Positions 19,420 to 62,383 of a stretch of 64,000 nt of DNA are shown piece after piece. The notes beneath the pieces are model-generated. The model had not been told where the DNA came from. It ran no database searches and worked only from the letters and a program-made list of their open reading frames with translations. The stretch's first letter is position 1, and each line of letters begins with the position of its first letter. The position numbers were made by a program, and so were the translations under genes. The stretch is from Escherichia coli (lineage in GTDB: Bacteria > Pseudomonadota > Gammaproteobacteria > Enterobacterales > Enterobacteriaceae), in NCBI RefSeq assembly GCF_044324785.1, contig NZ_CP172127.1. One strand, given 5' to 3'.

Positions 19420-19594
<175 letters not shown>

Positions 19595-19595
19595 T

Positions 19596-23222
<3,627 letters not shown>

Positions 23223-36472: not shown

Positions 36473-38314
<1,842 letters not shown>

Positions 38315-38508
38315 AAGACGGTATCCACACTTATTTCATGAGGTTGGTGTTGGGCGATTGACCCGATGTCCTTCAGCCGTTAACGCTGAAATCCAACGGT
38401 TGTTTACCGCCAACGATAATTACGAGGGCGTACTTATATATTTGCCGCTGCCTCTCAGTGCGGCTGTCGGGGGCTTCCCGATCGCTCTTCGGCACTTAAG
38501 CCGTTAAA

Positions 38509-40254: not shown

Positions 40255-40364
40255 AGGCCCCGATTTTTAGCAATTCATAAACGAAAATAAGCCGCGCATT
40301 CCTTTCGGAAGCACGGCCTTACAACTACAACTCGGTCTGATCGGAGAGCAACGCTCTCGGGGAA

Positions 40365-40619
<255 letters not shown>

Positions 40620-40817
40620 TCAACGCCAGCTTATTTCAAAATGGTGCGGAATTTTACTGCAATTGCTGCTGCTTTGTAAAGCACCGCGGCCTTTTTTGAA
40701 AGGGACTTTTATAAGGGTGAGAAGTATACACGAGGCTTTCTCCAGGGGCGAACAAAGTTTTACATCAACCCGCATTGGTCCTACACTGCGCGGTAATAAA
40801 GCGAGGTAAAACAAGTC

Positions 40818-41831
40818 ATGCGTGTACTGGGTATTGAAACTTCCTGCGATGAAACCGGCATCGCCATTTACGACGATGAAAAAGGTTTGTTAGCCAACCA
40901 ATTGTATAGTCAGGTGAAATTGCACGCTGACTACGGCGGCGTAGTGCCTGAGCTGGCCTCCCGCGATCATGTGCGTAAAACCGTACCGTTGATCCAGGCG
41001 GCGCTAAAGGAGTCTGGTTTAACGGCAAAAGACATTGATGCTGTGGCCTATACCGCAGGCCCTGGATTAGTCGGCGCACTGCTGGTTGGCGCGACCGTGG
41101 GGCGTTCTCTGGCGTTTGCCTGGAACGTTCCGGCGATCCCTGTACACCATATGGAAGGGCATCTGTTAGCGCCGATGCTGGAAGATAACCCACCGGAATT
41201 TCCGTTTGTGGCGCTGCTGGTTTCCGGCGGTCATACGCAGTTAATCAGCGTGACTGGCATTGGTCAGTACGAGCTGCTCGGCGAGTCTATCGATGATGCG
41301 GCTGGTGAAGCGTTTGATAAAACCGCGAAGCTGCTGGGGCTGGATTATCCTGGCGGGCCATTACTGTCGAAAATGGCGGCTCAGGGTACAGCCGGGCGCT
41401 TTGTCTTCCCGCGCCCGATGACCGACCGTCCGGGGCTGGATTTCAGCTTCTCCGGCCTGAAAACCTTCGCGGCAAATACCATTCGTGACAACGGCACCGA
41501 CGACCAGACGCGTGCTGATATCGCCCGCGCCTTTGAAGATGCGGTGGTCGATACGCTGATGATTAAGTGCAAGCGGGCGCTGGATCAGACGGGCTTTAAG
41601 CGACTGGTCATGGCGGGCGGCGTGAGTGCTAACCGTACGTTACGGGCGAAGCTGGCTGAAATGATGAAAAAACGCCGCGGCGAAGTGTTCTACGCGCGTC
41701 CGGAATTTTGTACTGATAACGGCGCGATGATCGCCTATGCCGGAATGGTGCGGTTTAAAGCAGGCGCGACGGCGGATCTCGGCGTTAGCGTGCGTCCGCG
41801 CTGGCCGCTGGCGGAGTTACCGGCTGCGTAA
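40818..41831 (+). CDS. tsaD: tRNA N6-threonylcarbamoyladenosine synthase TsaD (YgjD/Gcp)
   Basis: 337-aa [35 protein letters not shown]; divergent from rpsU. Confidence 0.95.
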
Positions 41832-41873
41832 AACTATCGAGTGCCGGAGAGTTACTTCCGGCACCGTCCTTAC

Positions 41874-43337
41874 TTAAAGCAACACCACGGGCATCCACAG
41901 TAAGCCGGTAATCACCAGCAATACGAGGAATATCAGCCCAAAAATCGCCCCCAGTCGCCAGTAATCCGCCGTTGGCAGATAACCACTGCCGTAGTAAATC
42001 GGACTGGGGCCGGTGGCGTATGGTGTAAGAATGCTCCCCAGACCAATTGCCGCACCAACCATCAGGCAGAACACCGGCAGCGGGATTTCCGGCATCGCCA
42101 GCGCAGCGGCAATCATCATCGGTGCGAGGGCGGAGGTATACGCCGTGGCGCTGGCAAAGAAGTAGCGCAGCAGATAAAAGACCACAATCAACGCCACCAT
42201 CACCATCGTCGGCGAATAACCGCTTAAGCTGCCTGCTAACAGTTTGCCAAACCAGCTAATAAAACCGGTGTTGTTGAGTCCGGTAGCGAGGGTGATAAGC
42301 GAGGCCAGCCAGAAGAAAACGTTCCACGCGGCTTTATTACTGACAATGTCGTCCCAACTGATAATGCGCAGAAGCAGCATCAGCGCCACCACGCTGTAAC
42401 CGACCATCGCGGCATCGATATAATCACCGCCGAAAATCCACAGCACCAGCGCGCCTACCATCAGCCCAAGCATCCGTTTTTCACGAGAACAGAGCGGGCC
42501 CATTGCCTGCAGTTCCGTCTCTGCCCAGCGCGGCACCTGATCACCAGACTTCAGTACCGGCGGGTACAGCACGTAAGCCAGCCAGGGAACCAGCAGAACC
42601 AGTAAAATACTGAGCGGCAACATCCCGAGGAACCAGTCGCCCCAACTCAGTGTGGCGTGAGATGCGCTTTTCATCAGGCCAATTAACAGCAAGTTAGGTG
42701 CCATCGCCGTCAGGAAAATGGCGCTGGTCACGCAGTCGGCAACAATCCCCATCCACATGATGTACGAGCCAATGCTGCGTGAACTGCTGTCGTTTGGTTG
42801 TGATTGATAGAGCGGTGGCAGGTTACGGATGATGGGATAGATAATCCCCGCACCGCGCGCCGAGTTGGACGGTGTTACAGGTGCCAGGATCAGCTCGGAG
42901 AACATCACCGCATAGCCGAGAAACAGCGTACGATGCCCCATCTTTTTCACCAGAATCAGCGCGATACGTCGCCCCAGCCCGGTTTTTTCATAGCCTGTGC
43001 CAAACATAAAGGCGGCGAAAATCAGCCAGATAACCGAATTAGAAAAACCAGAAACCGCCCAGGAGAGGGATTTGGCGGTGAACTTAAAACCTGGCTGGGC
43101 GAGCTGCTCCGGGCTAAACAGCAGCCACGGCGAGAGAATGGCGATAATGGAGATACCCACCATCGCCACCACGGCACCCGGCACGGGTTCGAGGATCAGT
43201 CCAACGATCACGCCAGTAAAAACGGCAAAGTAGAGCCAGGTATGACTCTCCAGCCCTGCGGGAACCGGAATTAGAGCAATAATGGCGATGACCGCCAGCG
43301 GCGCAAGGTATCGCCACCATTCAGTGGAAGGTTTCAT
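41874..43337 (-). CDS. ttdT: L-tartrate/succinate antiporter TtdT
   Basis: 487-aa polytopic membrane ORF downstream of ttdAB. Confidence 0.9.
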   Translation of the reverse strand: MKPSTEWWRYLAPLAVIAIIALIPVPAGLESHTWLYFAVFTGVIVGLILEPVPGAVVAMVGISIIAILSPWLLFSPEQLAQPGFKFTAKSLSWAVSGFSNSVIWLIFAAFMFGTGYEKTGLGRRIALILVKKMGHRTLFLGYAVMFSELILAPVTPSNSARGAGIIYPIIRNLPPLYQSQPNDSSSRSIGSYIMWMGIVADCVTSAIFLTAMAPNLLLIGLMKSASHATLSWGDWFLGMLPLSILLVLLVPWLAYVLYPPVLKSGDQVPRWAETELQAMGPLCSREKRMLGLMVGALVLWIFGGDYIDAAMVGYSVVALMLLLRIISWDDIVSNKAAWNVFFWLASLITLATGLNNTGFISWFGKLLAGSLSGYSPTMVMVALIVVFYLLRYFFASATAYTSALAPMMIAAALAMPEIPLPVFCLMVGAAIGLGSILTPYATGPSPIYYGSGYLPTADYWRLGAIFGLIFLVLLVITGLLWMPVVLL

Positions 43338-43385
43338 CGTGTTATGCCTGCGAAAAAGGAGAGGGGGTGAGCCTCTCCGGGAGGG

Positions 43386-43991
43386 TTATTTGATGTAGTG
43401 GACGTGCTCGCAAATCTCTTCCACGATGGGATCGCGGCGTTCGGCGAACAGCTTTTTGTTTTCGGCTATCAGGTTGTTGCCGTGGGTATCAATAGAGACA
43501 ATCAGCGGACCGAACTCTTTGACCCGGCAGACCCACAGCGACTCCGGCATCCCGAGTTCTGTCCAGTGCACTTCTTCAATCTCTTCCACCTGGGTTGCCG
43601 CCAGTACTGCGCAGCCTGCCGGGAAAATCACATGCAGCGCCTTGAATTTCTGGCAGCCTTCTTCGGTCAGCGGCCCCATTCCGCCTTTGCCGACCACCAG
43701 TTTCACGCCGGTCTGTTCGATAAATTCACGTTCAAAACTTTCCATACGCATACTGGTTGTCGGGCCGACGGATACCATCTCCCATTTGTCGCCGTTTTTG
43801 CGCACGATGGGGCCAGCGTGGAAAATCGCTTTGCCGTTGAGATCGTAAGGGATCGGACGTTTCAGTTCGATCAAGCGGCGGTGACAAACGTCGCGGCAGG
43901 TTACCAGCGTACCGGTCAGGTAGATCACATCGCCGACGCGAATATCTTGCAGATCTTCAGCTTTGATCGGGGTTGTCAGGATCTTTTTCAT
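43386..43991 (-). CDS. ttdB: L(+)-tartrate dehydratase beta subunit TtdB
   Basis: 201-aa ORF; fumarate hydratase class I C-terminal-like; overlaps ttdA stop. Confidence 0.9.
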
Positions 43992-44899
43992 AACGCGCTC
44001 CGGGTGTGAGACAGATTTTCAAAGGTGAGATCGGCATGAACCAGCAGTGTGCCGCGACGATGCGCCCAGCAGCCTGTAGAAACAGCAACGCCGATGGTTG
44101 ACGGATGGCGGGCGGCAGATTCGATATGTACGCCCATCACTGAACTGTTGCCAGTCAGCCCTTGTGGACCAATCCCCAGACGGTTGAGTCCTTCTTCCAG
44201 GCGTACTTCCAGCTCTGCCGCTTTTGGATTTGGATGGCGGCTGCCAATCGGGCGCAAAATGGCTTTACGCGAGAGCACTGCGGCGGTTTCCACCGAGGTG
44301 GCGATGCCCACGCCTACCAGTACCGGTGGACAGGCGTTTACGGCGAGGGTGGAGATATTTTCGAAGACGAATTTCACCACGCCTTCGTATCCTTCCGACG
44401 GCATTAACACTTTCGAACGACCAGGTAGTGTGCAGCCGCCGCCTGCCATGTAAACTTCGATTTCCGCATCGTCACCGTCGGGGATGATATCCCAAGTGAC
44501 CCACGGTACGCCGCTGCCGGTATTTTTGCCGGTGTTCACTTCGTCAAAAATTTCTACCGCATTGTGACGCAGTGGCGCTTTGACGGTTGCCTCTTCCACG
44601 GCTTGCTTAAGAATGCTTTGCAGCTCGCCAAGCAGTGGGAAACGGGAACCGACCTTAACAAAAAACATGATTTCGCCGGTGTCCTGGCAGGCCGGGCGAT
44701 TCAGGTCGATTGCTTTTTGCATGTTGTCGAACATCGTGTGGTAGATGATTTTCCCCATCGACGACGTTTCGGCATCCTTTAGCTGTTTTAGTTTGTCCAC
44801 CACGTCATCGGGCATTCGGGTAGAAATCATGGCGGTAAAGTTAGCGACAATCTCCGTCAACTTATTCACTGCCTGTTGCTTATTACTTTCGCTCATCAT
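43988..44899 (-). CDS. ttdA: L(+)-tartrate dehydratase alpha subunit TtdA
   Basis: 303-aa ORF; Fe-S hydro-lyase alpha-type. Confidence 0.9.
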
Positions 44900-45105
44900 G
44901 GCAACTCCAGTTTATGTATTTGTCTGGAAAAATTCACCGCCACAAACTACCACTAAAAATGTGGTTTTATATTTTTTGCCGCCGTGAATATGTAATTCAC
45001 AGTTCGTGAATCAACGCGAAAATAAGAATGAATATTGCGCCAGAGCAGGGAATGGCAATGTTTTGCGAAATACACTGCGCTTATCACAACTGCGGATAAT
45101 TAACG

Positions 45106-46038
45106 ATGCTGAATAGCTGGCCTTTAGCCAAAGATTTGCAGGTACTGGTAGAAATCGTCCACAGCGGGAGTTTTAGCGCCGCAGCGGCGACGCTTGGGCA
45201 AACGCCTGCATTTGTCACCAAGCGGATCCAAATCCTTGAAAATACGCTGGCAACAACGCTGCTGAACCGCTCCGCTCGCGGCGTGGCGCTGACTGAAAGT
45301 GGCCAACGTTGTTACGAGCATGCGCTGGAAATCCTCACCCAATATCAGCGACTGGTCGATGACGTTACGCAAATCAAAACGCGCCCGGAGGGGATGATTC
45401 GTATTGGCTGTAGTTTTGGTTTTGGGCGCAGCCATATTGCGCCAGCTATTACCGAACTGATGCGCAATTATCCTGAGTTACAAGTGCATTTTGAATTGTT
45501 CGATCGGCAAATTGATTTAGTGCAGGATAATATTGATCTGGATATTCGTATTAATGACGAAATTCCTGATTATTATATTGCGCATCTTTTGACAAAAAAT
45601 AAACGAATATTATGTGCTGCACCTGAGTATCTGCAAAAATATCCGCAGCCACAATCCTTGCAGGAATTAAGTCGTCATGACTGTCTGGTGACCAAAGAGC
45701 GTGATATGACCCACGGAATATGGGAGTTGGGGAACGGTCAGGAGAAAAAATCGGTGAAGGTAAGCGGGCACCTTTCCTCCAATAGTGGTGAGATTGTGCT
45801 GCAATGGGCGCTGGAAGGAAAAGGAATTATGCTGCGTTCTGAGTGGGATGTTTTGCCGTTTCTGGAGAGTGGCAAACTGGTGCGAGTATTGCCGGAGTAT
45901 GCACAAAGCGCCAATATCTGGGCTGTTTACCGGGAGCCGCTCTATCGCAGCATGAAATTACGTGTCTGCGTGGAATTTCTGGCGGCATGGTGCCAGCAAC
46001 GGCTGGGCAAGCCCGACGAAGGCTATCAGGTTATGTAG
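45106..46038 (+). CDS. ttdR: LysR-family activator of ttdAB, TtdR
   Basis: 310-aa ORF with N-terminal LysR HTH; divergent from ttdA. Confidence 0.88.
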
Positions 46039-46050
46039 ACTCGCGAAAAA

Positions 46051-46668
46051 TCACTCAGGATCCTTTTCGCGCTTTCTTTTGAATTTCGTCCAGATTTTTG
46101 TCTCTTGACGACGCCACAGACGCTGGATGTTGTCATGATGGCGCAGCAGGATCAGGCATGAGAGCATCGAAACCGGGAAGGTGAATTGTGGTTTAAACCA
46201 CCAGACGTAAAACGGAGCAATCAGTGCACTTACAATCGCTCCCAGCGACGAGTATCCGCTCAATAGCACGGTCAGTAACCAGGTTCCCGCCATTACTCCG
46301 GTGAGATCCCAGCCAATTGGTGCGATGGCACCAAAAGCGGTAGCAACGCCTTTTCCTCCTTTAAAACCGAAGAAAACGGGCCAGATGTGTCCAAGGCAGG
46401 CGGCGATGGCAATTAAGCCTAGCCAGAAGGGGCTGACACCTAATTCATACGCGCCCCAGACGGGCAACATTCCTTTCAGAACGTCGAAAATCAGTACTGC
46501 TACGGCTGCTCCCTTGCCACCGATACGTAACACATTGGTTGCGCCTGGATTGCCGGAGCCGCTGGTTCGCGGATCGGGCAGCCCACACAAGCGGCAAACC
46601 AGAATGGCACTGGAAATGGAGCCGCAGAGGTACGCGATGAGGATCATTCCAGGCGCGATTGCACTCAT
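46051..46668 (-). CDS. plsY: Glycerol-3-phosphate acyltransferase PlsY
   Basis: 205-aa membrane [48 protein letters not shown]. Confidence 0.92.
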
Positions 46669-46772
46669 AAGCTGTTCCGTTTTGAAAATTCGTGTTCAAC
46701 GATGAATCTGTGGATAATACGCACATTTCGCCGGAAGTGGTATCCGGTTAGCCAAAAAGCAGGCAGGACGTG

Positions 46773-47141
46773 ATGGATATTGTATTTATAGAGCAACTTT
46801 CGGTAATCACCACTATTGGTGTTTACGACTGGGAACAGACCATCGAACAGAAGTTAGTGTTCGATATCGAAATGGCGTGGGATAACCGTAAAGCGGCGAA
46901 AAGTGATGATGTGGCGGATTGCCTCAGTTACGCTGACATTGCAGAAACGGTGGTCAGCCATGTTGAGGGAGCGCGTTTTGCGTTGGTGGAGCGCGTGGCG
47001 GAAGAGGTGGCAGAATTACTGCTAACACGCTTTAACTCACCGTGGGTACGTATCAAACTCAGTAAGCCAGGCGCGGTGGCACGTGCCACGAATGTCGGCG
47101 TCATTATTGAGCGTGGCAATAATCCTAAAGAAAATAATTAA
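46773..47141 (+). CDS. folB: Dihydroneopterin aldolase FolB
   Basis: ORF 46770..47141, start at ATG 46773 (MDIVFIEQLSVITTIGVYDWEQTIEQK). Confidence 0.92.
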   Translation: MDIVFIEQLSVITTIGVYDWEQTIEQKLVFDIEMAWDNRKAAKSDDVADCLSYADIAETVVSHVEGARFALVERVAEEVAELLLTRFNSPWVRIKLSKPGAVARATNVGVIIERGNNPKENN

Positions 47142-47231
47142 TTTTACAGTTATAAAACCAAACGGCTATAACCGAGTCTTATTGCAGTATTTTTGACGAG
47201 CAATACATTTTTATTATTTAGGGGTTTATTG

Positions 47232-48053
47232 ATGAGCGATATGCACTCGCTGCTGGTAGCGGCAATATTGGGTGTGGTCGAAGGATTGACAGAATTTCTG
47301 CCGGTATCCAGCACAGGCCACATGATTATTGTCGGTCATTTGTTGGGATTTGAGGGAGATACGGCGAAAACCTTTGAAGTGGTGATCCAGTTAGGATCGA
47401 TTCTGGCTGTGGTTGTCATGTTCTGGCGACGTCTGTTTGGGCTGATCGGTATTCACTTTGGTCGCCCGTTGCAGCACGAAGGAGAAAGCAAAGGCCGTTT
47501 AACGCTGATCCACATTCTGCTTGGCATGATCCCGGCGGTGGTGCTGGGGTTGTTATTCCATGATGCTATCAAGTCCTTGTTTAATCCGATAAATGTGATG
47601 TATGCGCTGGTCGTTGGCGGTTTGTTGCTGATTGCCGCCGAATGCCTGAAACCAAAAGAACCGCGTGCGCCGGGTCTCGATGATATGACCTATCGTCAGG
47701 CGTTTATGATTGGTTGCTTCCAGTGTCTGGCGCTGTGGCCGGGTTTCTCTCGCTCCGGGGCGACCATTTCAGGTGGGATGCTGATGGGCGTGAGCCGTTA
47801 CGCTGCTTCCGAGTTCTCGTTCCTGCTGGCGGTGCCGATGATGATGGGTGCAACGGCGCTCGATCTCTACAAAAGCTGGGGCTTCCTGACAACCGGCGAT
47901 ATCCCGATGTTTGCCGTTGGGTTTATCACCGCTTTTGTGGTGGCGCTGATAGCGATTAAAACCTTCCTGCAATTGATTAAGCGCATTTCGTTTATCCCTT
48001 TCGCCATTTATCGCTTTATTGTGGCGGCTGCGGTGTATGTCGTGTTCTTTTGA
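47232..48053 (+). CDS. uppP: Undecaprenyl-diphosphatase UppP (BacA)
   Basis: ORF 47193..48053, start trimmed to [30 protein letters not shown] (273 aa). Confidence 0.92.
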
Positions 48054-48133
48054 TTGAGGAATAGTGTCGGATATGACGCTTGTGCGTCTTATCCGACCTG
48101 GCCGGTGTCTGCAATATATTGAAATTCAAGTGC

Positions 48134-49372
48134 TTAATCAGGCTTTGGGCAACGTTGTTCCTTCCAGTTGGCTACCGCCGCAATCCGCCGTCGGGTCAGC
48201 TCCTCGCGAATCTCCACACCTTTAAATCCCGCTTCAACGACCGCTTTTGTCGGCACTGACTGCGCCACTTCCCAGGCTTCGCGCAACCAGCGGCCTTGCG
48301 GGTAGTCCGCTGATTCAAAACCGGTTCTGCCGCGCACGTCAGCCTCGCTGGTCAGCGCCAGTTGCTCGACACGCTGCGGTTTACGCCAGGCGTCAATGGA
48401 ATCAAATAATTTGACGATGGTTTTTGGGTTCAGCATTGGGAAGGTGTGGATGAGATCGTGAAACTCAGCCACCAGTCGGGCTAAATCGCGAATTTCATTT
48501 GGCACGCGCAGACGCTGGCATAGTTGTTCCACTAACTTCACACCCGCCGGGCCATGACCATGATGACGCGGCCAAAGTTCTGGCGGCGTCAGTCCTTTAC
48601 CGAGATCGTGGCATAGCGTTGCGAAACGGACATCGACCTGCGGACTCAGCATCGCCGCCATTGAGAGCGTCATTAAGGTGTGAATACCGGTGTCGATTTC
48701 CGGATGCCACCTGGCAGGGGCCGGAACGCCAAACAGGGCGTCAATTTCCGGGAATAAAACGCGCAGTGCGCCGCAATCACGCAGTACCTGGAAGAACACC
48801 TGGGGATTGCGGGTAGTGAGGGCGCTTTCCGTCTCTTTCCACACCCGTTCAGGCGTCAGGTGTTCCAGTTCACCCGCGTGGATCATCTCGCGCATCAGCG
48901 CCAGAGTTTCATCGGCAATACGAAAACCGAGGTGGGCATAACGCGCAGCAAAACGCGCCACGCGCAGTACGCGTAACGGATCTTCGCCAAAAGCGGGGGA
49001 AACATGGCGCAACAGACGATTTTGCAGATCGCCCAGACCGTTGTACGGGTCGATAATCTCGCCGTTATCGTCCTGGGCCAGCGCATTAATGGTCAGATCG
49101 CGCCGCTTAAGATCATCTTCCAGCGTGACATCCGGTGCGGCATAGCAGGTAAAACCGGTGTAACCGGAACCGGATTTCCGTTCGGTTCGTGCCAGCGCAT
49201 ACTCTTCATGGGTTTGCGGATGCAGAAAAACAGGAAAATCGCGGCCTACCTGCTGGTAGCCCGCGTCGAGCATCTCCTGTGGCGTACTGCCGACTACTAC
49301 CCAATCTCTGTCTTTGACCGGTAGCCCTAACAATGCATCCCGAACAGCACCACCGACCAGATAAATCTTCAC
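48134..49372 (-). CDS. cca: CCA-adding tRNA nucleotidyltransferase Cca (HD domain)
   Basis: 412-aa [31 protein letters not shown]. Confidence 0.95.
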
Positions 49373-49435
49373 GCCATCATCCCTTCGTCAAATACACAAT
49401 TCCTAATAATAAGACAGTGCAACGAAGAAGGCGAT

Positions 49436-50056
49436 TTAGTTCATCCAGCGATCTTTACGTTTACGCGTTGGGATCAGGTGCGGCAGTACCAGGCCGAGCA
49501 GCAAGCCAAGCCCCAGCACGCCACCGCCATACATAAACCACTGCATGATGATGGTGCGCTGTTTGTCATCCAGCTGTACGCTGGCGGCATCGACCTTTTT
49601 CTGCGCGACAATCAGCTCGTTTTTCAGTTTCTGATTTTCTTCTTTTAACCCGTTGATCACGCTGTCGCTCTGCGCCACTTTTTGCTGCATTTCTGCGGTG
49701 CGCTGATTCCAGGTGTTATCGATATTGGTGAGCTTATCGGTCAGGGTTTTGACCTGATTTTCCAGATCTGGCACACGGGAGCGCAGGCTTGGCTCTGTGC
49801 TAAGTTGTTTCAACGGGATCCAGGCGGTACGGCCAGAGCTGTCTTTCACCTGGGCATAATTGGTGTTGGCGTCAGTTTGTAATAAGGTCACTTCCTCGCC
49901 GGCGTTAACCGTGCCCACGAGGCGATAATGGTCTCCCGGACCGCTACGGACCCAGGTGTTCAGTTCGTCAGAAACATAGCGCGTTTCTTCAGCGTGTGAG
50001 ACGGCAGTCGCGCTAAGTGCGAGTAAAGTTAATCCGATCAGGCGTAATTTTGGCAT
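49436..50056 (-). CDS. ygiM: SH3-domain membrane protein YgiM
   Basis: 206-aa ORF with signal peptide, central coiled region, C-terminal TM. Confidence 0.9.
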   Translation of the reverse strand: MPKLRLIGLTLLALSATAVSHAEETRYVSDELNTWVRSGPGDHYRLVGTVNAGEEVTLLQTDANTNYAQVKDSSGRTAWIPLKQLSTEPSLRSRVPDLENQVKTLTDKLTNIDNTWNQRTAEMQQKVAQSDSVINGLKEENQKLKNELIVAQKKVDAASVQLDDKQRTIIMQWFMYGGGVLGLGLLLGLVLPHLIPTRKRKDRWMN

Positions 50057-50297
50057 CAGGCTGTCGTTATTGTCATGGAAAGTGGAACGATAGTAGTGGC
50101 ATCAGTGTCGCTACGCAAAGCATTCGACATCAATCGGAATCCTCTGTGTCAGGTCTTGCCACTGCTTCAAACTTTTACGCCCGTCAAATTGCCCGTTGCA
50201 TGGCAATTTGGCGCAAAATACTATCTACTGACAAAAAAGATCGCATTAAGTTCGCCGTTCATCGTCACTTATGTGACATAACCGATAAGTAAAGGCT

Positions 50298-51599
50298 ATG
50301 GCTCAGGAAATCGAATTAAAGTTTATTGTTAATCACAGTGCCGTTGCGGCGCTGCGTGACCATCTCAATACGCTGGGCGGCGAGCACCATGACCCCGTGC
50401 AGTTGCTGAATATTTACTACGAAACGCCGGATAACTGGCTGCGTGGGCACGACATGGGCCTGCGTATTCGTGGCGAAAACGGTCGCTATGAGATGACCAT
50501 GAAAGTTGCAGGAAGAGTGACAGGCGGCTTACACCAGCGCCCGGAATATAACGTGGCGTTGAGCGAACCGACGCTCGACCTGGCGCAGTTACCGACGGAA
50601 GTCTGGCCGAATGGCGAATTGCCTGCCGATCTCGCTTCCCGCGTACAACCGCTGTTCAGCACCGATTTTTATCGCGAAAAGTGGCTGGTAGAGGTCGATG
50701 GTAGCCAAATTGAAATCGCCCTCGACCAGGGGGAAGTGAAAGCGGGGGAATTTGCTGAGCCTATCTGCGAGCTGGAACTGGAACTGCTTAGCGGCGACAC
50801 GCGCGCGGTGCTGAAACTGGCGAACCAACTGGTATCGCAAACCGGATTACGCCAGGGCAGCCTGAGCAAAGCGGCGCGTGGCTATCATCTGGCGCAGGGC
50901 AATCCCGCGCGTGAAATCAAACCGACCACCATTTTGCATGTTGCGGCAAAAGCTGATGTGGAACAGGGGCTGGAAGCGGCGCTCGAGCTGGCGTTAGCGC
51001 AATGGCAGTATCATGAAGAACTGTGGGTACGTGGCAACGATACGGCGAAAGAGCAGGTGCTGGCAGCCATTGGCCTTGTTCGCCATACGCTGATGCTGTT
51101 CGGTGGCATTGTGCCGCGTAAAGCGAGCACTCACTTACGTGATTTACTGACTCAATGCGAAGCGACCATCGCTTCTGCGGTGTCTGCCGTAACGGCGGTC
51201 TACTCTACCGAAACGGCAATGGCGAAGCTGGCGTTGACCGAATGGCTGGTAAGCAAAGCCTGGCAGCCGTTTTTAGATGCCAAAGCGCAGAGTAAAATGA
51301 GCGATTCCTTCAAACGCTTTGCCGATATCCATCTTTCCCGCCATGCCGCTGAACTGAAAAGCGTTTTCTGCCAGCCGTTGGGCGATCGCTACCGTGACCA
51401 GTTGCCACGCCTGACGCGTGATATTGACTCAATCCTGTTGCTGGCGGGTTACTACGATCCTGTCGTCGCGCAAGCCTGGCTGGAGAACTGGCAGGGGCTG
51501 CGTCACGCTATTGCGACCGGACAACGCATTGAAATTGAACATTTCCGTAATGAGGCAAACAATCAGGAACCGTTCTGGTTGCACAGCGGAAAACGTTAA
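50298..51599 (+). CDS. ygiF: Inorganic triphosphatase YgiF (CYTH-CHAD)
   Basis: 433-aa [27 protein letters not shown] (CYTH signature EIELKF). Confidence 0.9.
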
Positions 51600-51621
51600 T
51601 CAGGCAAGGATAAAATCGCTT

Positions 51622-54462
51622 ATGAAGCCGCTCTCTTCACCATTACAGCAGTACTGGCAGACCGTTGTTGAGCGGCTGCCAGAGCCTTTAGCCGAGGAAT
51701 CACTTAGCATACAGGCGAAGTCAGTACTTACTTTCAGTGATTTTGTGCAGGACAGCGTGATTGCGCATCCAGAGTGGCTGACGGAACTGGAAAGCCAACC
51801 GCCGCAGGCCGACGAATGGCAGCATTACGCTGCCTGGTTGCAGGAGGCGCTCAGTAATGTGAGTGACGAAGCCGGGTTAATGCGCGAGCTGCGGCTATTC
51901 CGGCGGCGCATTATGGTGCGCATCGCCTGGGCGCAAACGCTGGCACTGGTTACTGAAGAGAGCATTTTGCAGCAGCTCAGTCATCTGGCGGAGACGCTGA
52001 TTGTTGCGGCGCGTGACTGGCTGTATGACGCCTGCTGCCGCGAGTGGGGAACGCCGTGCAATGCGCAGGGCGAAGCGCAACCGCTGCTGATTTTAGGCAT
52101 GGGTAAGCTGGGTGGCGGGGAATTGAATTTCTCCTCAGATATCGATCTGATTTTTGCCTGGCCGGAACATGGTTGTACCCAGGGCGGACGCCGGGAACTG
52201 GATAACGCCCAGTTTTTTACCCGCATGGGGCAGCGGCTGATTAAAGTGCTGGATCAACCAACGCAGGATGGCTTCGTCTATCGCGTGGATATGCGACTGC
52301 GTCCGTTTGGCGAAAGTGGCCCGCTGGTGCTGAGCTTTGCGGCGCTGGAAGATTATTACCAGGAGCAGGGGCGCGACTGGGAGCGTTACGCGATGGTCAA
52401 GGCGCGGATTATGGGCGATAGCGAAGGCGTCTATGCTAACGAGTTGCGTGCGATGCTGCGCCCGTTTGTTTTCCGTCGTTACATCGATTTCAGCGTGATT
52501 CAGTCGCTGCGCAACATGAAAGGAATGATTGCCCGTGAAGTGCGTCGACGCGGTTTGACCGACAACATCAAACTTGGCGCAGGCGGCATTCGCGAAATTG
52601 AATTTATCGTCCAGGTGTTCCAGCTCATTCGCGGCGGGCGTGAACCGTCGCTGCAATCGCGCTCTTTACTGCCAACGCTCAGCGCCATTTCCGCGCTGCA
52701 TCTGCTTTCTGAAAACGATGCTGAACTATTGCGAGTGGCGTATCTGTTCCTGCGGCGTCTGGAAAACCTGCTGCAAAGCATTAACGACGAACAAACCCAG
52801 ACGCTTCCTTCTGATGAGCTTAACCGTGCGCGGCTGGCGTGGGCGATGGACTTTGCTGACTGGCCGCAACTGACCGGGGCGCTGACCGTACATATGACCA
52901 ATGTGCGTCGGGTGTTTAATGAATTGATTGGCGACGATGAAAGTGAAACTCAGGAAGAGTCGCTGTCGGAACAGTGGCGTGAGCTGTGGCAGGATGCGTT
53001 GCAGGAAGATGACACCACGCCAGTGCTTGCGCATCTTAGCGAGGATGATCGCAAACAGGTGCTAACGCTGATTGCTGATTTTCGCAAAGAGCTGGATAAG
53101 CGTACCATCGGGCCGCGCGGGCGTCAGGTGCTCGACCATCTGATGCCGCATCTGCTAAGTGATGTCTGTGCGCGTGAAGACGCTGCTGTCACGCTGTCGC
53201 GCATTACCGCCTTGCTGGTGGGAATTGTTACCCGCACTACCTATTTAGAATTGCTCAGTGAATTCCCCGCGGCGCTTAAGCATTTGATTTCTCTGTGTGC
53301 CGCATCGCCGATGATTGCCAGCCAGCTAGCGCGTTATCCATTATTGCTGGACGAACTGCTCGATCCAAACACTCTCTACCAACCGACGGCGACGGATGCC
53401 TACCGTGATGAACTGCGCCAGTATTTGCTGCGCGTGCCGGAAGATGACGAAGAACAACAGCTTGAGGCGCTGCGTCAGTTCAAACAGGCGCAACTGTTAC
53501 GTATTGCGGCAGCGGATATCGCCGGTACGCTACCGGTAATGAAAGTGAGCGATCACTTAACCTGGCTGGCGGAGGCTATGATAGATGCCGTCGTTCAGCA
53601 GGCGTGGGTTCAAATGGTTGCCCGCTACGGTAAGCCAAATCACCTGAACGAACGCGAAGGGCGTGGTTTTGCGGTGGTCGGCTACGGCAAGCTGGGCGGC
53701 TGGGAGTTAGGCTACAGTTCCGATCTTGACCTGATCTTCCTCCATGATTGCCCGATGGATGCGATGACTGACGGCGAGCGGGAAATCGACGGGCGACAGT
53801 TTTATCTGCGTCTGGCGCAACGCATTATGCATCTGTTCAGTACGCGAACCTCTTCCGGCATTTTGTATGAAGTGGATGCACGGTTGCGTCCGTCCGGGGC
53901 GGCGGGAATGCTGGTGACATCCGCAGAAGCGTTTGCCGATTATCAGAAAAACGAGGCCTGGACGTGGGAACATCAGGCGCTGGTGCGTGCGCGTGTAGTG
54001 TACGGCGATCCGCAGCTCACCGCGCACTTTGACGCAGTACGCCGGGAGATTATGACGCTGCCGCGCGAAGGCAAAACCCTGCAAACAGAAGTGCGGGAAA
54101 TGCGCGAGAAAATGCGTGCCCATCTCGGCAATAAACATCGCGATCGCTTTGATATCAAAGCCGATGAAGGCGGAATTACCGATATCGAATTTATTACTCA
54201 ATATCTGGTGTTGCGCTACGCTCATGAAAAACCGAAGTTAACGCGCTGGTCAGACAACGTGCGCATTCTGGAACTACTGGCGCAAAACGACATTATGGAA
54301 GAGCAGGAAGCGATGGCGCTGACCCGTGCTTACACGACGCTGCGCGATGAACTTCATCATCTGGCATTACAGGAATTGCCGGGCCATGTGTCGGAGGATT
54401 GCTTCACCGCAGAGCGTGAACTGGTGCGGGCAAGCTGGCAGAAGTGGCTGGTGGAAGAATGA
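51622..54462 (+). CDS. glnE: Glutamine synthetase adenylyltransferase/deadenylase GlnE
   Basis: ORF 51418..54462, start trimmed to ATG 51622 ([19 protein letters not shown], 946 aa); two nucleotidyltransferase domains. Confidence 0.95.
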
Positions 54463-54509
54463 AGTATGGTATTATCGCGCGCAAATTTTGAATCTCTCAG
54501 GAGACAGGA

Positions 54510-55943
54510 ATGAAAGTAACGCTGCCAGAGTTTGAACGTGCAGGAGTGATGGTGGTTGGTGATGTGATGCTGGATCGTTACTGGTACGGTCCCACCAGCC
54601 GTATCTCGCCGGAAGCGCCGGTGCCCGTGGTTAAAGTAAATACCATCGAAGAACGTCCGGGCGGCGCGGCTAACGTGGCGATGAATATCGCTTCTCTCGG
54701 TGCTAATGCACGCCTGGTCGGGTTGACGGGCATTGACGATGCGGCGCGCGCGCTGAGTAAATCTCTGGCCGACGTCAACGTCAAATGCGACTTCGTTTCT
54801 GTACCGACGCATCCGACCATCACCAAATTACGGGTACTTTCCCGCAACCAACAGCTGATCCGTCTGGATTTTGAAGAAGGTTTCGAAGGGGTTGATCCGC
54901 AGCCGCTGCACGAGCGGATTAATCAGGCGCTGAGTTCGATTGGCGCGCTGGTGCTCTCTGACTACGCGAAAGGTGCGCTGGCAAGCGTGCAGCAGATGAT
55001 CCAACTGGCGCGTAAAGCGGGCGTTCCGGTGCTGATTGATCCAAAAGGTACCGATTTTGAGCGCTACCGCGGCGCTACGCTGTTAACGCCGAATCTCTCG
55101 GAATTTGAAGCTGTTGTCGGTAAATGTAAGACCGAAGAAGAGATTGTTGAACGCGGCATGAAACTGATTGCCGATTACGAACTCTCGGCTCTGTTGGTGA
55201 CCCGTTCCGAACAGGGTATGTCGCTGCTGCAACCGGGTAAAGCGCCGCTGCATATGCCAACCCAGGCGCAGGAAGTGTATGACGTTACCGGTGCGGGCGA
55301 CACGGTGATTGGCGTCCTGGCGGCAACGCTGGCTGCGGGTAATTCACTGGAAGAAGCCTGCTTCTTTGCCAATGCGGCGGCAGGCGTGGTGGTCGGCAAA
55401 CTGGGGACATCCACGGTATCGCCGATCGAGCTGGAAAATGCAGTACGTGGACGTGCAGATACCGGCTTTGGTGTGATGACCGAAGAGGAACTGAAGCTTG
55501 CTGTAGCGGCGGCGCGTAAACGTGGTGAAAAAGTGGTAATGACCAACGGTGTCTTCGATATCCTACATGCCGGGCACGTCTCTTATCTGGCAAATGCCCG
55601 CAAGCTGGGTGACCGCTTGATTGTTGCCGTCAACAGCGATGCCTCCACCAAACGGCTGAAAGGGGATTCCCGCCCCGTTAACCCGCTCGAACAGCGTATG
55701 ATTGTGCTGGGCGCACTGGAAGCGGTCGACTGGGTAGTGTCGTTTGAAGAAGACACGCCGCAGCGCTTGATCGCCGGGATCCTGCCAGACCTGCTGGTGA
55801 AAGGTGGCGACTATAAACCAGAAGAGATTGCCGGGAGTAAAGAAGTCTGGGCCAACGGCGGCGAAGTGTTGGTGCTCAACTTTGAAGACGGTTGCTCGAC
55901 GACCAACATCATCAAGAAGATCCAACAGGATAAAAAAGGCTAA
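54510..55943 (+). CDS. hldE: Bifunctional D-beta-D-heptose 7-phosphate kinase / heptose 1-phosphate adenylyltransferase HldE
   Basis: 477-aa [44 protein letters not shown]. Confidence 0.95.
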
Positions 55944-56022
55944 CCGGAAAGCGGTTCACAGATCTCGCTTCGAACCTGGCAGGCCTATTGACGCTGTTGT
56001 TTTTTCAACCTAGAGTAAAGGA

Positions 56023-56166
56023 ACAAGGGTAAGGGAGGATTTCTCCCCCCTCTGAATTGGTTGTTAATAAGCCTGGAAACTTACTAGTAACAACACAATC
56101 AGTATGATGACGAGCTTCATCATAACCCTTTCCTTCTATAAGGCCCCTTCCTCGGGAGGGGCTTTC
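56023..56166 (+). ncRNA. Sib-family antisense sRNA (SibD/SibE-like), copy 1
   Basis: Near-consensus promoter TTGACG-17 nt-TAGAGT at 55988-56016; transcript would fully cover the ibs ORF on the opposite strand; GC hairpin + U-run at about 56142-56165; ends approximate. Confidence 0.55.
56064..56123 (-). CDS. Ibs-family hydrophobic toxin peptide (19 aa, MMKLVIILIVLLLVSFQAY), copy 1
   Basis: Minus-strand ATGATGAAGCTCGTCATCATACTGATTGTGTTGTTACTAGTAAGTTTCCAGGCTTATTAA; typical Ibs length and composition. Confidence 0.7.
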   Translation of the reverse strand: MMKLVIILIVLLLVSFQAY

Positions 56167-56398
56167 CCGTTTCAGCTCCTTGCTGACTCCCCGATTGTTG
56201 ATGAGCGCCAGACCCCGCGCAACGCTTTCCCAGAGGCAGTTTTCCTTTCCCCGAGCGGTCACGCAAAACGTTGCAACAGCCTGATCATTTGCACCTTTTA
56301 GCGGAACGCAGATATAAAAAATCCCCGGTTTTTTGGGCCAGGGATATGTGTTAATGAAACCTTCTTGACGCTGTTTTTTTTTCAACCTAAAGTAAAGG

Positions 56399-56542
56399 AA
56401 CAAGGGTGAGGGAGGATTTCTCCCCCCTCTGATTGGCTGTTAGTAAGCGTGGAAACTTATCAGTAACAACACAATCAGTATGATGATGAGCTTCATCATA
56501 ACCCTTTCCTTATACAAGGCCCCTTCTTCGGGAGGGGCTTTC
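56399..56542 (+). ncRNA. Sib-family antisense sRNA, copy 2
   Basis: Promoter TTGACG-17 nt-TAAAGT; hairpin + U-run at about 56518-56541; antisense to second ibs ORF; ends approximate. Confidence 0.55.
56440..56499 (-). CDS. Ibs-family hydrophobic toxin peptide (19 aa, MMKLIIILIVLLLISFHAY), copy 2
   Basis: Minus-strand ATGATGAAGCTCATCATCATACTGATTGTGTTGTTACTGATAAGTTTCCACGCTTACTAA. Confidence 0.7.
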   Translation of the reverse strand: MMKLIIILIVLLLISFHAY

Positions 56543-56737
56543 CCGTTTCAGCCCCTTGCTGACTTCCCGATTGTTGATGAACGCCGGACCCCGCGCAATG
56601 CTTTCCCAGAGGCAGTTTTGCCTTCCCCGAGCGGTCACGCAAAATGCTGCAACAGCCCGATCATTTGCACTTTTTATCGGAACGCAGATATAAAGAATCC
56701 CCGGCTTTTTGGGCCAGGGATGTTCATAGTTGAAAAT

Positions 56738-58257
56738 TTATTCTACGTTTTCTGCGACGGGAGTTGTTGAGGTTAAGGGGGAAGTCAATGCCGCCAGCGA
56801 GCCGCCTGAAACGCCAATTTCATTGAGTAAGGAGTCAATCAGCGGTGCTTGTGTGCGGTAAGAGAGTGCGGCTGATAACGCTTGTTCCGCCAGGTTTCCG
56901 CCCCCCACATTACCCGTGTTTGCATCACCCGCAGCGCTGCCACGATTCAGACCATCGACCTGAATAATCTTGATACCGTCAATAGATTTCATCGGCTCAA
57001 CGGATTTTTCTATTACCGCAGGTAGCGCCTGCAACAAGGCCAGTTTGAATTTAAGGCTGGTTTGTTCATCAGAAAGTACGTTGATAGCATCGTTCAGCGC
57101 ACGTTGTGCTTCTGCTTCCGCCAGACCCTTTTTACGTGTAGCTTCGGCTAACTCAACGATAGCCGCCGCCTGCATCTCTGCGGCTTCTTTTTCTGCTTTT
57201 GCCCGGACAGTCAGTTCAACTGCTTTGGTTTCTGCATCCTGCGCGGCAGCGATTAGGGCAACTTGTTTAGCACGATCGGCTTCTGCGGTCTGGCGAGTGG
57301 TTTCTACGTTTTGTTGGGCGCTTACTGCTTCTGCGAGTGCAAGGTTAGCACGCGCTTCTGCCTGGGACTGTTGTTCCGATTTGGCGGCAATAGCGATCGA
57401 TTTCGTCTGGTTGGCGATTTCGGTGACCTGCTGCTGTTCGATCTCTTTAATGCGAACTTCACGTTCAGCTTCAACTTTTCTGGAACGGACGGCCTGTTCG
57501 CGGTCGATTTCCGTTTCCTGAATCTGTCGTTCAGCCAGAATTCGCGTCTGCTCTGCTTCCCGACGACGCTCGGCCTCAAAAGCTGCAATTTTCGCATTCT
57601 GCTCAGCGGTACGGGTTTTAACCTGCTGCTCCTGTTCAAGCGTCATAAACGCTTCTTGTTGTTCAATCTCCAGCTTCCGCGAAAGCGCATCACGATTTTT
57701 CTCACGCACCGCAACTTCTACATCCTGTTCAACTTCGTTACGTTCGCGACGACGGCGCTCCGTCTCCTGCGTCAGCTTGGTTAAACCTTCGGCGTCAAAG
57801 GCGTTGTTAGGATTGAAATGTTCTTTCGACGTCTGGTTAAAGTTGGTAAGTGAAACGCTTTCCAGTTCCAGACCGTTTTTCGACAGATCTTCAGCTACGG
57901 TATTTTGTACTCCCTGCACGAAGTTCTCGCGGGTATCCTGTAACTCATGCATGGTCATTTGTGCAGCTGTTGCACGGAGGGCATCGACGAATTTATCTTC
58001 AACCAACATACGTAAATCTTCTGGTGATAGCGTGCGTTGCCCCAACGTTTGGGCAGCGGTGGCAATCCCTTCTACTGAAGGTTTTACCCGCACAAAGAAA
58101 GCGACTACTACATCGACGCGCATACGATCTTTCGTAATCAGGCTATCAATGGTTGAGCGGCTGACTTCCAGCTTCAGAGTATTCATATTGATGGGGATTA
58201 TTTCATGAAAGATCGGCATCACGATTGCGCCACCGCTCATTACCACTTTTTGCCCAC
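56738..58257 (-). pseudogene. yqiK: yqiK (flotillin/SPFH-family protein), C-terminal 503 codons, separated from its 5' end by an IS insertion
   Basis: ORF 56738..58246 begins VVMSGGAIVMPIFHEIIPINMNTLKLEV, continuing the reading frame that starts at 59465 on the far side of the IS. Confidence 0.85.
58249..58257. repeat. Target-site duplication, left copy (TTTGCCCAC)
   Basis: Identical 9-mer at 59315-59323 directly flanks the other inverted repeat. Confidence 0.8.
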
Positions 58258-59314
58258 GGCTTTGTTGAATAAATCAGATTTCGGGTAAGTCTCCCCCGTA
58301 GCGGGTTGTGTTTTCAGGCAATACGCACGCTTTCAGGCATACCTGCTTTCGTCATTTTGTTCAGCGCTCGTACCAGGGCCATAGCCTCCGCAACCTGACC
58401 ATCGTAGTCACGCAGCGTCAGTGAACCCCCGAACAGCTGTTTTACCCGGTACATCGCCGTTTCCGCTATCGAGCGACGGTTGTAATCTGTTGTCCATTTC
58501 CACCGCGCATTACTCCCGGTCATTCGCTGATTAGCCACTGCACGGTTACGGTCTGCATATTCACCGGGCCAGTAACCCGCACCTTTTCGGGGAGGGATAA
58601 GCGCGCTGATTTTCTTACGCCGCAGTTCATCGTGACATAGCCGGGTATCGTAAGCGCCATCGGCGGCGGCTGACCTGATTTTCCGGTGGGTTTGCCGGAT
58701 TAACCCGGGGAAGGCCTCTGAGTCCGTAACGTTGTTCAGCGACAGGTCAGCGCAGATGATTTCATGTGTTTTACTGTCAACGGCGAGATGCAGCTTACGC
58801 CAGATACGGCGGCGTTCCTGGCCATGCTTTTTGACTTTCCACTCGCCTTCACCGAAGACCTTCAGCCCGGTGGAATCAATTACCAGGTGTGCGATTTCAC
58901 CCCGGGTGGGCGTTTTGAAACTGACATTAACCGACTTTGCCCGCCTGCTGACACAGCTGTAATCCGGGCAGCGTAGCGGAACGTTCATCAGAGAAAAAAT
59001 GGAATCAATAAAGCCCTGCGCAGCCCGCAGGGTCAGCCTGAATACGCGTTTAATGACCAGCACAGTAGTGATGGCAAGGTCAGAATAGCGCTGAGGTCTG
59101 CCTCGTGAAGAAGGTGTTGCTGACTCATACCAGGCCTGAATAGCTTCATCATCCAGCCAGAAAGTTATGGAGCCACGGTTGATGAGGGCTTTATTGTAGG
59201 TGGGCCAGTTGGTGATTTTGAACTTTTGCTTTGCCACGGAACGGTCTGCGTTGTCGGGAAGATACGTGATCTGATCCTTCAACTCAGCAAAAGTTCGATT
59301 TATTCAACAAAGCC
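58258..59314 (-). mobile_element. IS903-family insertion sequence (IS5 family, IS903 group), 1057 bp
   Basis: Perfect 18-bp terminal inverted repeats GGCTTTGTTGAATAAATC (58258-58275; complement at 59297-59314); length and ends match recalled IS903/IS102; flanked by 9-bp direct repeat. Confidence 0.9.
58314..59237 (-). CDS. IS903-family DDE transposase (307 aa from GTG; ORF track extends it to 322 aa from TTG at 59282)
   Basis: Protein ...KFKITNWPTYNKALINRGSITFWLDD...DGAYD...; fills the element between the inverted repeats. Confidence 0.85.
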   Translation of the reverse strand: MAKQKFKITNWPTYNKALINRGSITFWLDDEAIQAWYESATPSSRGRPQRYSDLAITTVLVIKRVFRLTLRAAQGFIDSIFSLMNVPLRCPDYSCVSRRAKSVNVSFKTPTRGEIAHLVIDSTGLKVFGEGEWKVKKHGQERRRIWRKLHLAVDSKTHEIICADLSLNNVTDSEAFPGLIRQTHRKIRSAAADGAYDTRLCHDELRRKKISALIPPRKGAGYWPGEYADRNRAVANQRMTGSNARWKWTTDYNRRSIAETAMYRVKQLFGGSLTLRDYDGQVAEAMALVRALNKMTKAGMPESVRIA

Positions 59315-59323
59315 TTTGCCCAC
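59315..59323. repeat. Target-site duplication, right copy (TTTGCCCAC)
   Basis: Matches 58249-58257. Confidence 0.8.
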
Positions 59324-60389: not shown

Positions 60390-60590
60390 ATGGATCATAG
60401 TCTTAATTCTTTAAATAATTTCGATTTCCTGGCGCGTAGTTTTGCCAGAATGCACGCAGAAGGTCGCCCGGTCGATATTCTGGCCGTTACTGGTAACATG
60501 GATGAAGAACATAGAACCTGGTTTTGCGCACGTTATGCCTGGTATTGCCAACAGATGATGCAAACCAGAGAACTTGAATTAGAACACTGA
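60390..60590 (+). CDS. glgS: GlgS (surface composition regulator)
   Basis: ORF 60384..60590 (GTG), start trimmed to ATG 60390: [59 protein letters not shown] aaccggagga upstream. Confidence 0.88.
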
Positions 60591-60624
60591 TATTACGGGC
60601 CGTCTGGCCCGTTTTTGTGTTGCT

Positions 60625-60924
60625 TTATTCTGCTTTATCAATAGGCGGGATAGCCGGAGGAGATTGAAGATCTGCTACCGAATTATTGCGCGCTTCCAGT
60701 TCACTGATGCGCTGCTCTAGTAATGCCAGTTTCTCACGAGTCCGTAACAGGACTTGCGTCTGTACGTCGAATTCTTCGCGGCTCACCAGATCGAGACGCG
60801 TCAGCTGCGCTTGTAGGGTTTGGCGGATTTTTTTCTCCACATCTTCCCCGAACTCCCTGATTCCTTTAGGCATTGATTCGTGAACCTGGCGAGCGATTTG
60901 CTCAATTTTTTTCGGGTCAATCAT
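60625..60924 (-). CDS. ubiK: Ubiquinone biosynthesis accessory factor UbiK (YqiC)
   Basis: ORF 60625..60984, start trimmed to [35 protein letters not shown]; coiled-coil. Confidence 0.8.
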
Positions 60925-61039: not shown

Positions 61040-61215
61040 GAATCCGCTTATTCTCAGGGCGGGGCGAAATTCCCCACCGGCGGTAAATCAACTCAGTTGA
61101 AAGCCCGCGAGCGCTTTGGGTGCGAACTCAAAGGACAGCAGATCCGGTGTAATTCCGGGGCCGACGGTTAGAGTCCGGATGGGAGAGAGTAACGATTCTG
61201 TCGGGCATGGACCCG
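61040..61215 (+). promoter_or_regulatory. FMN riboswitch (RFN element) in the ribB leader
   Basis: Conserved RFN blocks agggcggggcgaaattccccaccggcggtaa ... agcccgcgagcg ... ggtgtaattccgg ... gccgacggttagagtccggatgggagaga upstream of ribB. Confidence 0.75.
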
Positions 61216-61297: not shown

Positions 61298-61951
61298 ATG
61301 AATCAGACGCTACTTTCCTCTTTTGGTACGCCTTTCGAACGTGTTGAAAATGCACTGGCTGCGCTGCGTGAAGGACGCGGTGTAATGGTGCTTGATGATG
61401 AAGACCGTGAAAACGAAGGCGATATGATCTTCCCGGCAGAAACCATGACCGTTGAGCAGATGGCGCTGACCATTCGCCACGGTAGCGGTATTGTTTGCCT
61501 GTGCATTACTGAAGATCGCCGTAAACAACTCGATCTGCCAATGATGGTAGAAAATAACACCAGCGCCTATGGCACCGGTTTTACCGTGACCATTGAAGCG
61601 GCTGAAGGTGTGACTACCGGTGTTTCTGCCGCTGACCGTATTACGACCGTTCGCGCAGCGATTGCCGATGGCGCAAAACCGTCAGATCTGAATCGCCCAG
61701 GCCACGTTTTCCCACTTCGCGCTCAGGCTGGTGGTGTACTGACGCGTGGCGGCCATACTGAAGCGACTATTGATCTGATGACGCTGGCAGGCTTTAAACC
61801 GGCTGGTGTGCTGTGTGAGCTGACTAATGACGATGGCACGATGGCGCGTGCACCAGAGTGCATTGAGTTTGCCAATAAACACAATATGGCGCTCGTGACT
61901 ATTGAAGACCTGGTGGCATACCGTCAGGCACATGAGCGTAAAGCCAGCTGA
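61298..61951 (+). CDS. ribB: 3,4-dihydroxy-2-butanone 4-phosphate synthase RibB
   Basis: 217-aa [53 protein letters not shown]. Confidence 0.96.
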
Positions 61952-61984
61952 AAACCGCTGCTTAATTTACTGCCTTAATCAAGA

Positions 61985-62019
61985 AACCGAAGTTGTAGCA
62001 GGCTTCGGTTTTTATTTTT
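61985..62019 (+). terminator. ribB rho-independent terminator
   Basis: Stem aaccgaag...cttcggtt followed by tttatttttc. Confidence 0.65.
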
Positions 62020-62212
62020 CCCTGCTATGTAAGATGTTAATTCCGCTTCTCTTTCTATGAGAAAATTTCATTAATATCAGGCATTCTTTTTCATTATGAT
62101 CAAAATCATATAATTGTTCCGTTATTATGCGACCATATGAATATATCCGAAAAAGGATATGTGAAATTTATGCGCTAAATGTTTAGTATTGTTAAATATT
62201 AAGGGTAAAAGG

Positions 62213-62383
62213 ATGTTTATCGCCTGGTACTGGATTGTATTGATTGCTCTGGTTGTGGTGGGTTATTTCCTGCATTTGAAACGATATTGTCGGGCGTTTC
62301 GCCAGGACAGAGACGCCCTGCTTGAAGCGCGGAACAAATACTTAAACAGTACGAGAGAAGAGACAGCCGAAAAGGTAGAATAA
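62213..62383 (+). CDS. Hypothetical small membrane protein (56 aa, one predicted TM helix)
   Basis: ATG 62213 preceded by aaggg Shine-Dalgarno-like sequence; MFIAWYWIVLIALVVVGYFLHLKRY... hydrophobic helix then charged tail; not recognised. Confidence 0.4.
   Translation: MFIAWYWIVLIALVVVGYFLHLKRYCRAFRQDRDALLEARNKYLNSTREETAEKVE

Follow-up and report, generated by a model that had tools for sequence, protein, structure and literature searches.

Direct adjacency of glgS and ubiK in an Escherichia coli chromosome: a probably ancestral junction lacking the ygiL-yqiGHI fimbrial operon of K-12

Background

Two related chaperone-usher fimbrial operons have been described in the chromosomal neighbourhood of ubiK (yqiC) and ribB in Escherichia coli. 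One of them, known as the 'Yqi' fimbriae or ExPEC adhesin I (EA/I) of B2 ExPEC and APEC (Antao et al. 2009, PMC2771359), comprises the genes of a major subunit, an usher, a chaperone and an adhesin, and occupies, in strain APEC O1, the interval of yqiD and ribB, at a distance of about 1 kb from the junction of ubiK and glgS. The other is the ygiL-yqiGHI operon of K-12, which lies at that junction itself; the gene order in MG1655 is glgS, yqiI, yqiH, yqiG, ygiL and ubiK, and the usher gene yqiG holds an IS2 transposase at the 5' end. In the chaperone-usher catalogue of Wurpel et al. (2013, PMC3559732) two related and mutually exclusive operons are distinguished, 'Yqi', associated with phylogroup B2, and 'Yqi-like', associated with phylogroups A, B1, D and E, and the island polymorphism between glgS and ubiK is already known from that work. 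The EA/I paper (PMC2771359) was set aside as a direct comparator, since it treats another operon than that of K-12.

In this work we focused on the glgS-ubiK junction in a stretch of 64,000 nucleotides of E. coli DNA, hereafter called the window, in which the two genes are convergent neighbours. We compared the junction with those of K-12, of other complete E. coli genomes and of other enterobacterial species, and considered how the difference from K-12 may have arisen.

Methods

Species-representative genomes were scanned with the UbiK protein of the window, which resulted in 80 loci. Among 5426 complete E. coli genomes, direct adjacency of glgS and ubiK was scored when the junction segment was uninterrupted, and the island was scored as carried when glgS plus yqiI-yqiH-yqiG were covered by at least 80%. 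The spacer alignment contained 13 sequences, coming from three E. coli, E. albertii, a divergent Escherichia, four Citrobacter, Salmonella arizonae, Raoultella, Klebsiella and Superficieibacter. Searches, alignments and shuffling controls are given below with the results that they produced.

Results

The glgS-ubiK pair and its spacer

A sequence-only reading of the window had placed glgS directly beside ubiK, about 34 bp apart, and on re-reading both the coordinates and the quoted sequence proved exact (Table 1). GlgS matches the Pfam family GlgS (PF08971) over residues 1-66 of 66 with 153.9 bits (cut-off 32.2, E = 1e-45), and residues 1-78 of UbiK match the BMFP family (PF04380) with 96.2 bits (cut-off 37.2). 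The divergently oriented ribB gene and its FMN riboswitch are found immediately upstream of ubiK, which is the genomic context of ubiK/YqiC. The spacer is also 34 bp long in E. coli N3, O157:H7 and APEC O1.

A scan with Rfam gave no RNA family inside the glgS/ubiK spacer, the only matches nearby being the FMN riboswitch and two SIB antitoxin RNAs (RF00113, 142 and 150 bits) at 55988..56138 and 56365..56514. The latter correspond to ibs/sib type I toxin-antitoxin repeats and lie between hldE and yqiK, as they do in K-12.

Table 1. Features of the glgS-ubiK junction and its surroundings (window positions, except in the last line, where positions are those of the loci named)
Feature	Position	Strand	Description and basis
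glgS	60390..60590	+	ATG at 60390, 66 aa + stop; ORF list, annotated in matching RefSeq genomes
glgS 3' end and hairpin, strongly diverged from K-12	60548..60621	.	13/74 mismatches, vs 1/348 just upstream
glgS/ubiK spacer	60591..60624	.	34 bp between convergent stop codons, TATTACGGGCCGTCTGGCCCGTTTTTGTGTTGCT; read directly
Hairpin ACGGGCC-GTCT-GGCCCGT	60595..60612	+	7-bp stem with 6 G-C pairs, 4-nt loop; terminator scan
T-run TTTTTGTGTT	60613..60622	+	immediately follows the hairpin; expected U-tract of a glgS transcript
Stretch without detectable K-12 counterpart	60622..60683	.	62 bp: last 3 bp of the spacer, ubiK stop and about the last 19 codons
ubiK (yqiC)	60625..60924	-	99 aa + stop; ORF list; 300-bp ubiK in N3, O157:H7 and APEC O1 annotations
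ubiK codons about 41-80, diverged from K-12	60684..60803	.	22/120 mismatches, then 0/247 further on
FMN riboswitch	61046..61194	+	ahead of ribB; Rfam RF00050, 120.9 bits
ribB	61298..61951	+	ORF list, 100% tblastn self-match, annotation in relatives
ribB-yqiD intergenic region, empty Yqi (EA/I) site	61952..62212	.	261 bp; APEC O1 annotation for comparison
yqiD	62213..62383		ORF list; zupT after it
ribB-side operons in other genera	L011 3011..7901; L016, L020, L023, L024, L026, L029-L031, L055, L074, L076; L088 2934..7908		

A conserved hairpin between the two stop codons

The terminator-like hairpin with a T-run that had been noticed in the spacer is present there, the stem-loop being followed by TTTTTGTGTT. 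It begins 4 nt past the glgS stop codon and ends 12 nt short of that of ubiK. On the glgS strand both sequence marks of an intrinsic terminator were found, a GC-rich stem-loop after the stop codon and a U-tract. On the minus strand, which is that of ubiK, the sequence after the hairpin is AATATCAG instead of a U-tract, and the 3' flank reads AAUAUCAG.

The pattern scan alone was not significant: it found 2 terminator-like sites in 1.2 kb, where shuffled sequences would yield 1.1. A 54-nt stretch folds at -19.2 kcal/mol, corresponding relative to shuffles to z = -3.7 on the plus strand and z = -4.3 on the minus strand. The stem is unchanged in 12 of the 13 enterobacterial spacers aligned, which display eight different loops. 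Covariation is nearly absent from this alignment (one pair) because the stem does not vary; with an invariant stem next to a variable loop and variable flanks, the support for the hairpin is thus its conservation.

Judged from these features, the hairpin and U-tract most likely constitute the intrinsic terminator of glgS. For ubiK the same hairpin, devoid of a U-tract on that strand, would act at best as a weak terminator or as a protective 3' hairpin: efficient termination of ubiK at this site is doubtful, and the structure may only stabilise the 3' end of the transcript. The element resembles Rho-independent terminators between convergent genes in its GC-rich 7-bp stem, its 4-nt loop and its glgS-strand U-tract, but differs from them in having a U-tract on one strand only, and a truly bidirectional terminator is therefore unsupported in the lineage of the window. 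Some Citrobacter spacers contain T-runs on both sides of the hairpin.

Comparison with the fimbrial island of K-12

In K-12 glgS and ubiK are not adjacent: the ygiL-yqiGHI genes and the IS2, which the sequence-only reading had placed between yqiC (ubiK) and glgS, form a 6.6-kb block at exactly this place in MG1655. The window, from which the fimbrial yqiGHI/ygiL cluster had been reported missing, does lack it, as only 34 bp separate the two genes and tblastn with the four K-12 proteins YgiL, YqiG, YqiH and YqiI (E <= 1e-3) detected no homologue in the whole 64 kb; the same search served as a check for fimbrial remnants and found none. A Yqi-like operon, i.e. usher, chaperone, adhesin and major subunit genes between ubiK and glgS, is hence not found in the window, and since K-12 carries the ygiL-yqiGHI::IS2 block there, the two differ in their chaperone-usher fimbrial content.

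Homology to K-12 stops at window position 60621, which leaves 3 bp to the ubiK stop codon, and it restarts at 60684 inside ubiK. In place of the 62 bp of the window, K-12 has a block of 6627 bp (11423..18049 of locus L001), which is made up of the island and the K-12 UbiK tail. The island of ETEC-2264, which is free of IS2, measures 5.3 kb, and its junctions are identical to those of K-12, which indicates a single insertion event. The GC content of the K-12 island is 40.1%, versus 51.5% for its neighbourhood, and the island looks foreign in character. The K-12 and window loci have in common the chromosomal site, glgS, the hairpin and codons 1-77 of ubiK, and their flanks are the same beyond about 75-120 bp from the junction; they differ in that all four fimbrial genes and IS2 are missing from the window.

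Diverged flanks and the UbiK tail

Close to the junctions the divergence between K-12 and the window reaches about 18% (Table 1). On the glgS side, the stretch with a single mismatch consists of glgS and its leader, and the strongly diverged stretch spans the end of glgS plus the hairpin. On the ubiK side, the UbiK protein is identical in the window and K-12 up to residue 77 despite the nucleotide mismatches. In the junction-proximal stretches the window agrees with N3, O157 and APEC O1, and these sequences are nearer to E. albertii than that of K-12 is. The 3' 120 bp of K-12 ubiK are only 82-84% identical to the Escherichia sequences compared, and the corresponding segment of the window is 87% identical to that of E. 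albertii.

UbiK has 96 residues in K-12, with the tail NRSTEIKKQPDPETLPPTL, and 99 residues in the window, with another C-terminal tail; the switch falls immediately past the conserved BMFP domain. The tail of the window is of the PAIPPVD type, as in Citrobacter, Salmonella and Enterobacter, and that of K-12 is not. Carriers of the island have the 96-aa UbiK; the boundary of the indel extends into ubiK. Global alignments of the K-12 tail with the ancestral one, evaluated against 2000 shuffles, gave p values of about 0.04-0.25, which is not significant.

From this pattern, we suggest that the island would have entered E. coli by homologous recombination with short flanks from the 3' ends of ubiK and glgS. 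The donor would have been more distant and would already have had the operon after ubiK, and the insertion would have given the carrier strains another UbiK C-terminal tail. No island donor with adjacent ubiK and ygiL was present among the 80 species loci.

The junction in other enterobacterial species

Wherever glgS is present among the 80 loci, it is located directly downstream of ubiK and in convergent orientation. This layout was seen in E. albertii, a divergent Escherichia, eight Citrobacter, S. enterica arizonae, Raoultella, Klebsiella, Superficieibacter and Pseudocitrobacter, and in none of the 80 species loci were fimbrial genes found between ubiK and glgS. In most of the 15 spacers read, a hairpin of the form ACGGGCC-loop-GGCCCGT lies 7-15 nt past the ubiK stop codon and is followed by the glgS stop codon. 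As both this order in the spacer and the UbiK tail agree, the window is colinear with the outgroups at the base level.

The synteny comparison that the sequence-only reading had proposed thus shows the island in K-12 and direct adjacency in O157:H7, APEC O1 and the outgroup genera, and because the latter have the same junction, the absence of the island can be regarded as the ancestral-type state. The window would represent the ancestral enterobacterial arrangement, a convergent gene pair around one conserved GC-rich hairpin, and the ygiL-yqiGHI operon of K-12 would have entered this junction later, by horizontal transfer, in a subset of E. coli. The lineage of the window would either never have carried the island or have an ancestral-type allele.

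Distribution of the two operons in E. coli

The island was carried by 3269 of the 5426 complete E. coli genomes, and the related Yqi/EA-I operon by 993 of them. The absence of the fimbrial genes had been taken for a strain-level difference in adhesin content; a difference from K-12 it is, but not a peculiarity of the strain, since glgS and ubiK are directly adjacent in 2062/5426 genomes (about 38%), including O157:H7 TX 265-1 and the B2 strain APEC O1. The island polymorphism is a lineage-level one.

E. coli N3, O157:H7 TX 265-1 and APEC O1 have the same gene pair, the 34-bp spacer, the 99-aa UbiK and GlgS WP_001296424.1, and their junctions show no substantial difference from that of the window. 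N3, whose junction is equally empty, is 99.9% identical to the window over 851 bp. The junction of O157:H7 TX 265-1 (L083) is empty although Wurpel et al. (PMC3559732) tie the Yqi-like operon to phylogroups A, B1, D and E.

The four-gene Yqi/EA-I operon is likewise not found between yqiD and ribB in the window, where there are only 261 bp and no homologue; in other genera, the K-12 Yqi-like proteins do detect operons beside ribB, with identities of 31-57%. APEC O1 shares the 34-bp junction with the window but possesses the EA/I operon that the window lacks. The window therefore belongs to the class that has neither the Yqi-like nor the Yqi/EA-I operon. If the mutual exclusion described in PMC3559732 holds, we infer that roughly a thousand of the 5426 genomes belong to this class.

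Operons resembling ygiL-yqiG-yqiH-yqiI were found just past the 3' end of ribB in several Citrobacter, Enterobacter, Lelliottia, Pseudocitrobacter and Klebsiella (31-57% protein identity; Table 1), a position that coincides with the one occupied in APEC O1 by the EA/I 'Yqi' operon. Because several genera carry the operon there, the ribB side seems to be both the more widespread location of this fimbrial type and the older one, to which the ubiK-glgS site of K-12 would be an exception.

Other features of the window

The flotillin gene yqiK is interrupted by an IS903-type element (IS5 family) of 1057 bp at 58258..59314, with terminal inverted repeats GGCTTTGTTGAATAAATC... and a 9-bp target duplication, TTTGCCCAC, at 58249..58257 and 59315..59323. 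Its transposase of 322 aa matches the Pfam families DDE_Tnp_1_5 and DDE_Tnp_1. IS903B in yqiK was found in only 3 of the 5426 complete genomes, and since these are only 96.4% identical to the window over the segment, their insertions and that of the window are probably independent.

Three further differences from K-12 were observed. A 1.9-kb segment between fadH and ygjK (17680..19612), missing in K-12, holds an ORF of 513 aa on the minus strand (17825..19366) with three internal repeats (...NLINADTD...) and no Pfam match; the segment is present in 251 of the 5426 complete E. coli genomes, with no annotation other than 'hypothetical protein'. The interval between mug and rpoD, only about 80 bp long in K-12, contains in the window an ORF of 187 aa with a NADAR domain (PF08719), at 35850..36413 on the minus strand. 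Conversely, about 930 bp of K-12 containing the higB-higA (ygjN-ygjM) toxin-antitoxin genes have no counterpart in the window, at about 15478..15487.

The identity between the window and K-12 ranges from 94.5 to 98% block by block. Over 36500..58200 (21.7 kb) the closest complete E. coli genome is that of N3 with 98.3%, the others being at most 97.7% identical. As no complete genome exceeds 98.3% over these 21.7 kb, the window seems to come from a lineage of E. coli that is deep-branching or poorly sampled.

Discussion

Taken together, the best explanation, to which we assign a probability of roughly 0.8, is that the window displays the ancestral junction, that the island was acquired later by horizontal transfer, that the Yqi/EA-I operon is lacking as well, and that the hairpin is likely the terminator of glgS.

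The empty junction could also stem from a secondary loss, in a lineage which once had ygiL-yqiGHI between ubiK and glgS and from which the operon was deleted, for example via an IS. Island-bearing genomes are after all the majority (3269/5426), erosion of the island by IS elements is known, with IS2 in K-12 and IS1 in E8, and the window lineage has active IS elements close by, with an IS903-type element in yqiK. However, the junction is base-for-base colinear with those of E. albertii, Citrobacter and Salmonella, the UbiK tail of the window is the ancestral one and not the island-linked 96-aa tail, and there are neither fimbrial nor IS remnants in the spacer and no fimbrial ones in the 64-kb window. 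What a deletion leaves behind can be seen in the deletion derivative E8, where IS1 lies between stubs of yqiI and ygiL, and where UbiK is of the 96-aa K-12 type. All of these marks (stubs, IS1 and the 96-aa UbiK) are missing from the window, which makes a secondary deletion very unlikely; no scar, be it residual island or IS sequence or the 96-aa UbiK allele, was found, and spacer and tail align with the outgroups.

An island-bearing ancestor might instead have regained an empty junction by homologous recombination with an island-free E. coli. Over its 851 bp the junction segment shares 99.9-98.8% identity with that of many E. coli, and for the adjoining 21.7 kb the identity to complete genomes does not exceed 98.3%, with every genome except one at or below 97.7%; as the identity of the junction exceeds that of this neighbour, its history could differ from that of its surroundings, and recombination breakpoints near the junction are evident in K-12. 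Such a replacement nevertheless appears unlikely, as there is no positive sign that the island was ever in the lineage, the short and conserved glgS and ubiK genes are expected to lie above the regional mean similarity, and the junction is equally empty in N3, the closest genome. A collapse or drop of the fimbrial block during assembly deserves virtually no credit, given that the identical 34-bp junction is found in single BLAST pieces of the 2062 complete genomes and in the outgroup species.

Returning to the ancestral junction with a later insertion, a possible corollary is that K-12, and not the window, has the unusual allele, the island having replaced a UbiK tail of the PAIPPxD type by an unrelated or highly diverged tail of 19 residues and having separated ubiK from the hairpin, and that UbiK function, or read-through from ubiK into ygiL-yqiGHI, could differ between strain types. 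We consider this proposal, as a whole, quite unlikely.

Conclusions

The observation tells which of two related, mutually exclusive fimbrial operons a strain has. The window has neither operon, like the O157:H7 genome examined, and in the absence of both the Yqi-like and the Yqi/EA-I operon it has neither of these fimbrial adhesin systems, which is routine pan-genome variation. The 'missing' genes would correspond to a derived insertion in K-12-like strains rather than to a loss in the window, and since this insertion is linked to another UbiK C-terminus, the K-12 UbiK used in biochemical work would not be the ancestral form of the protein.
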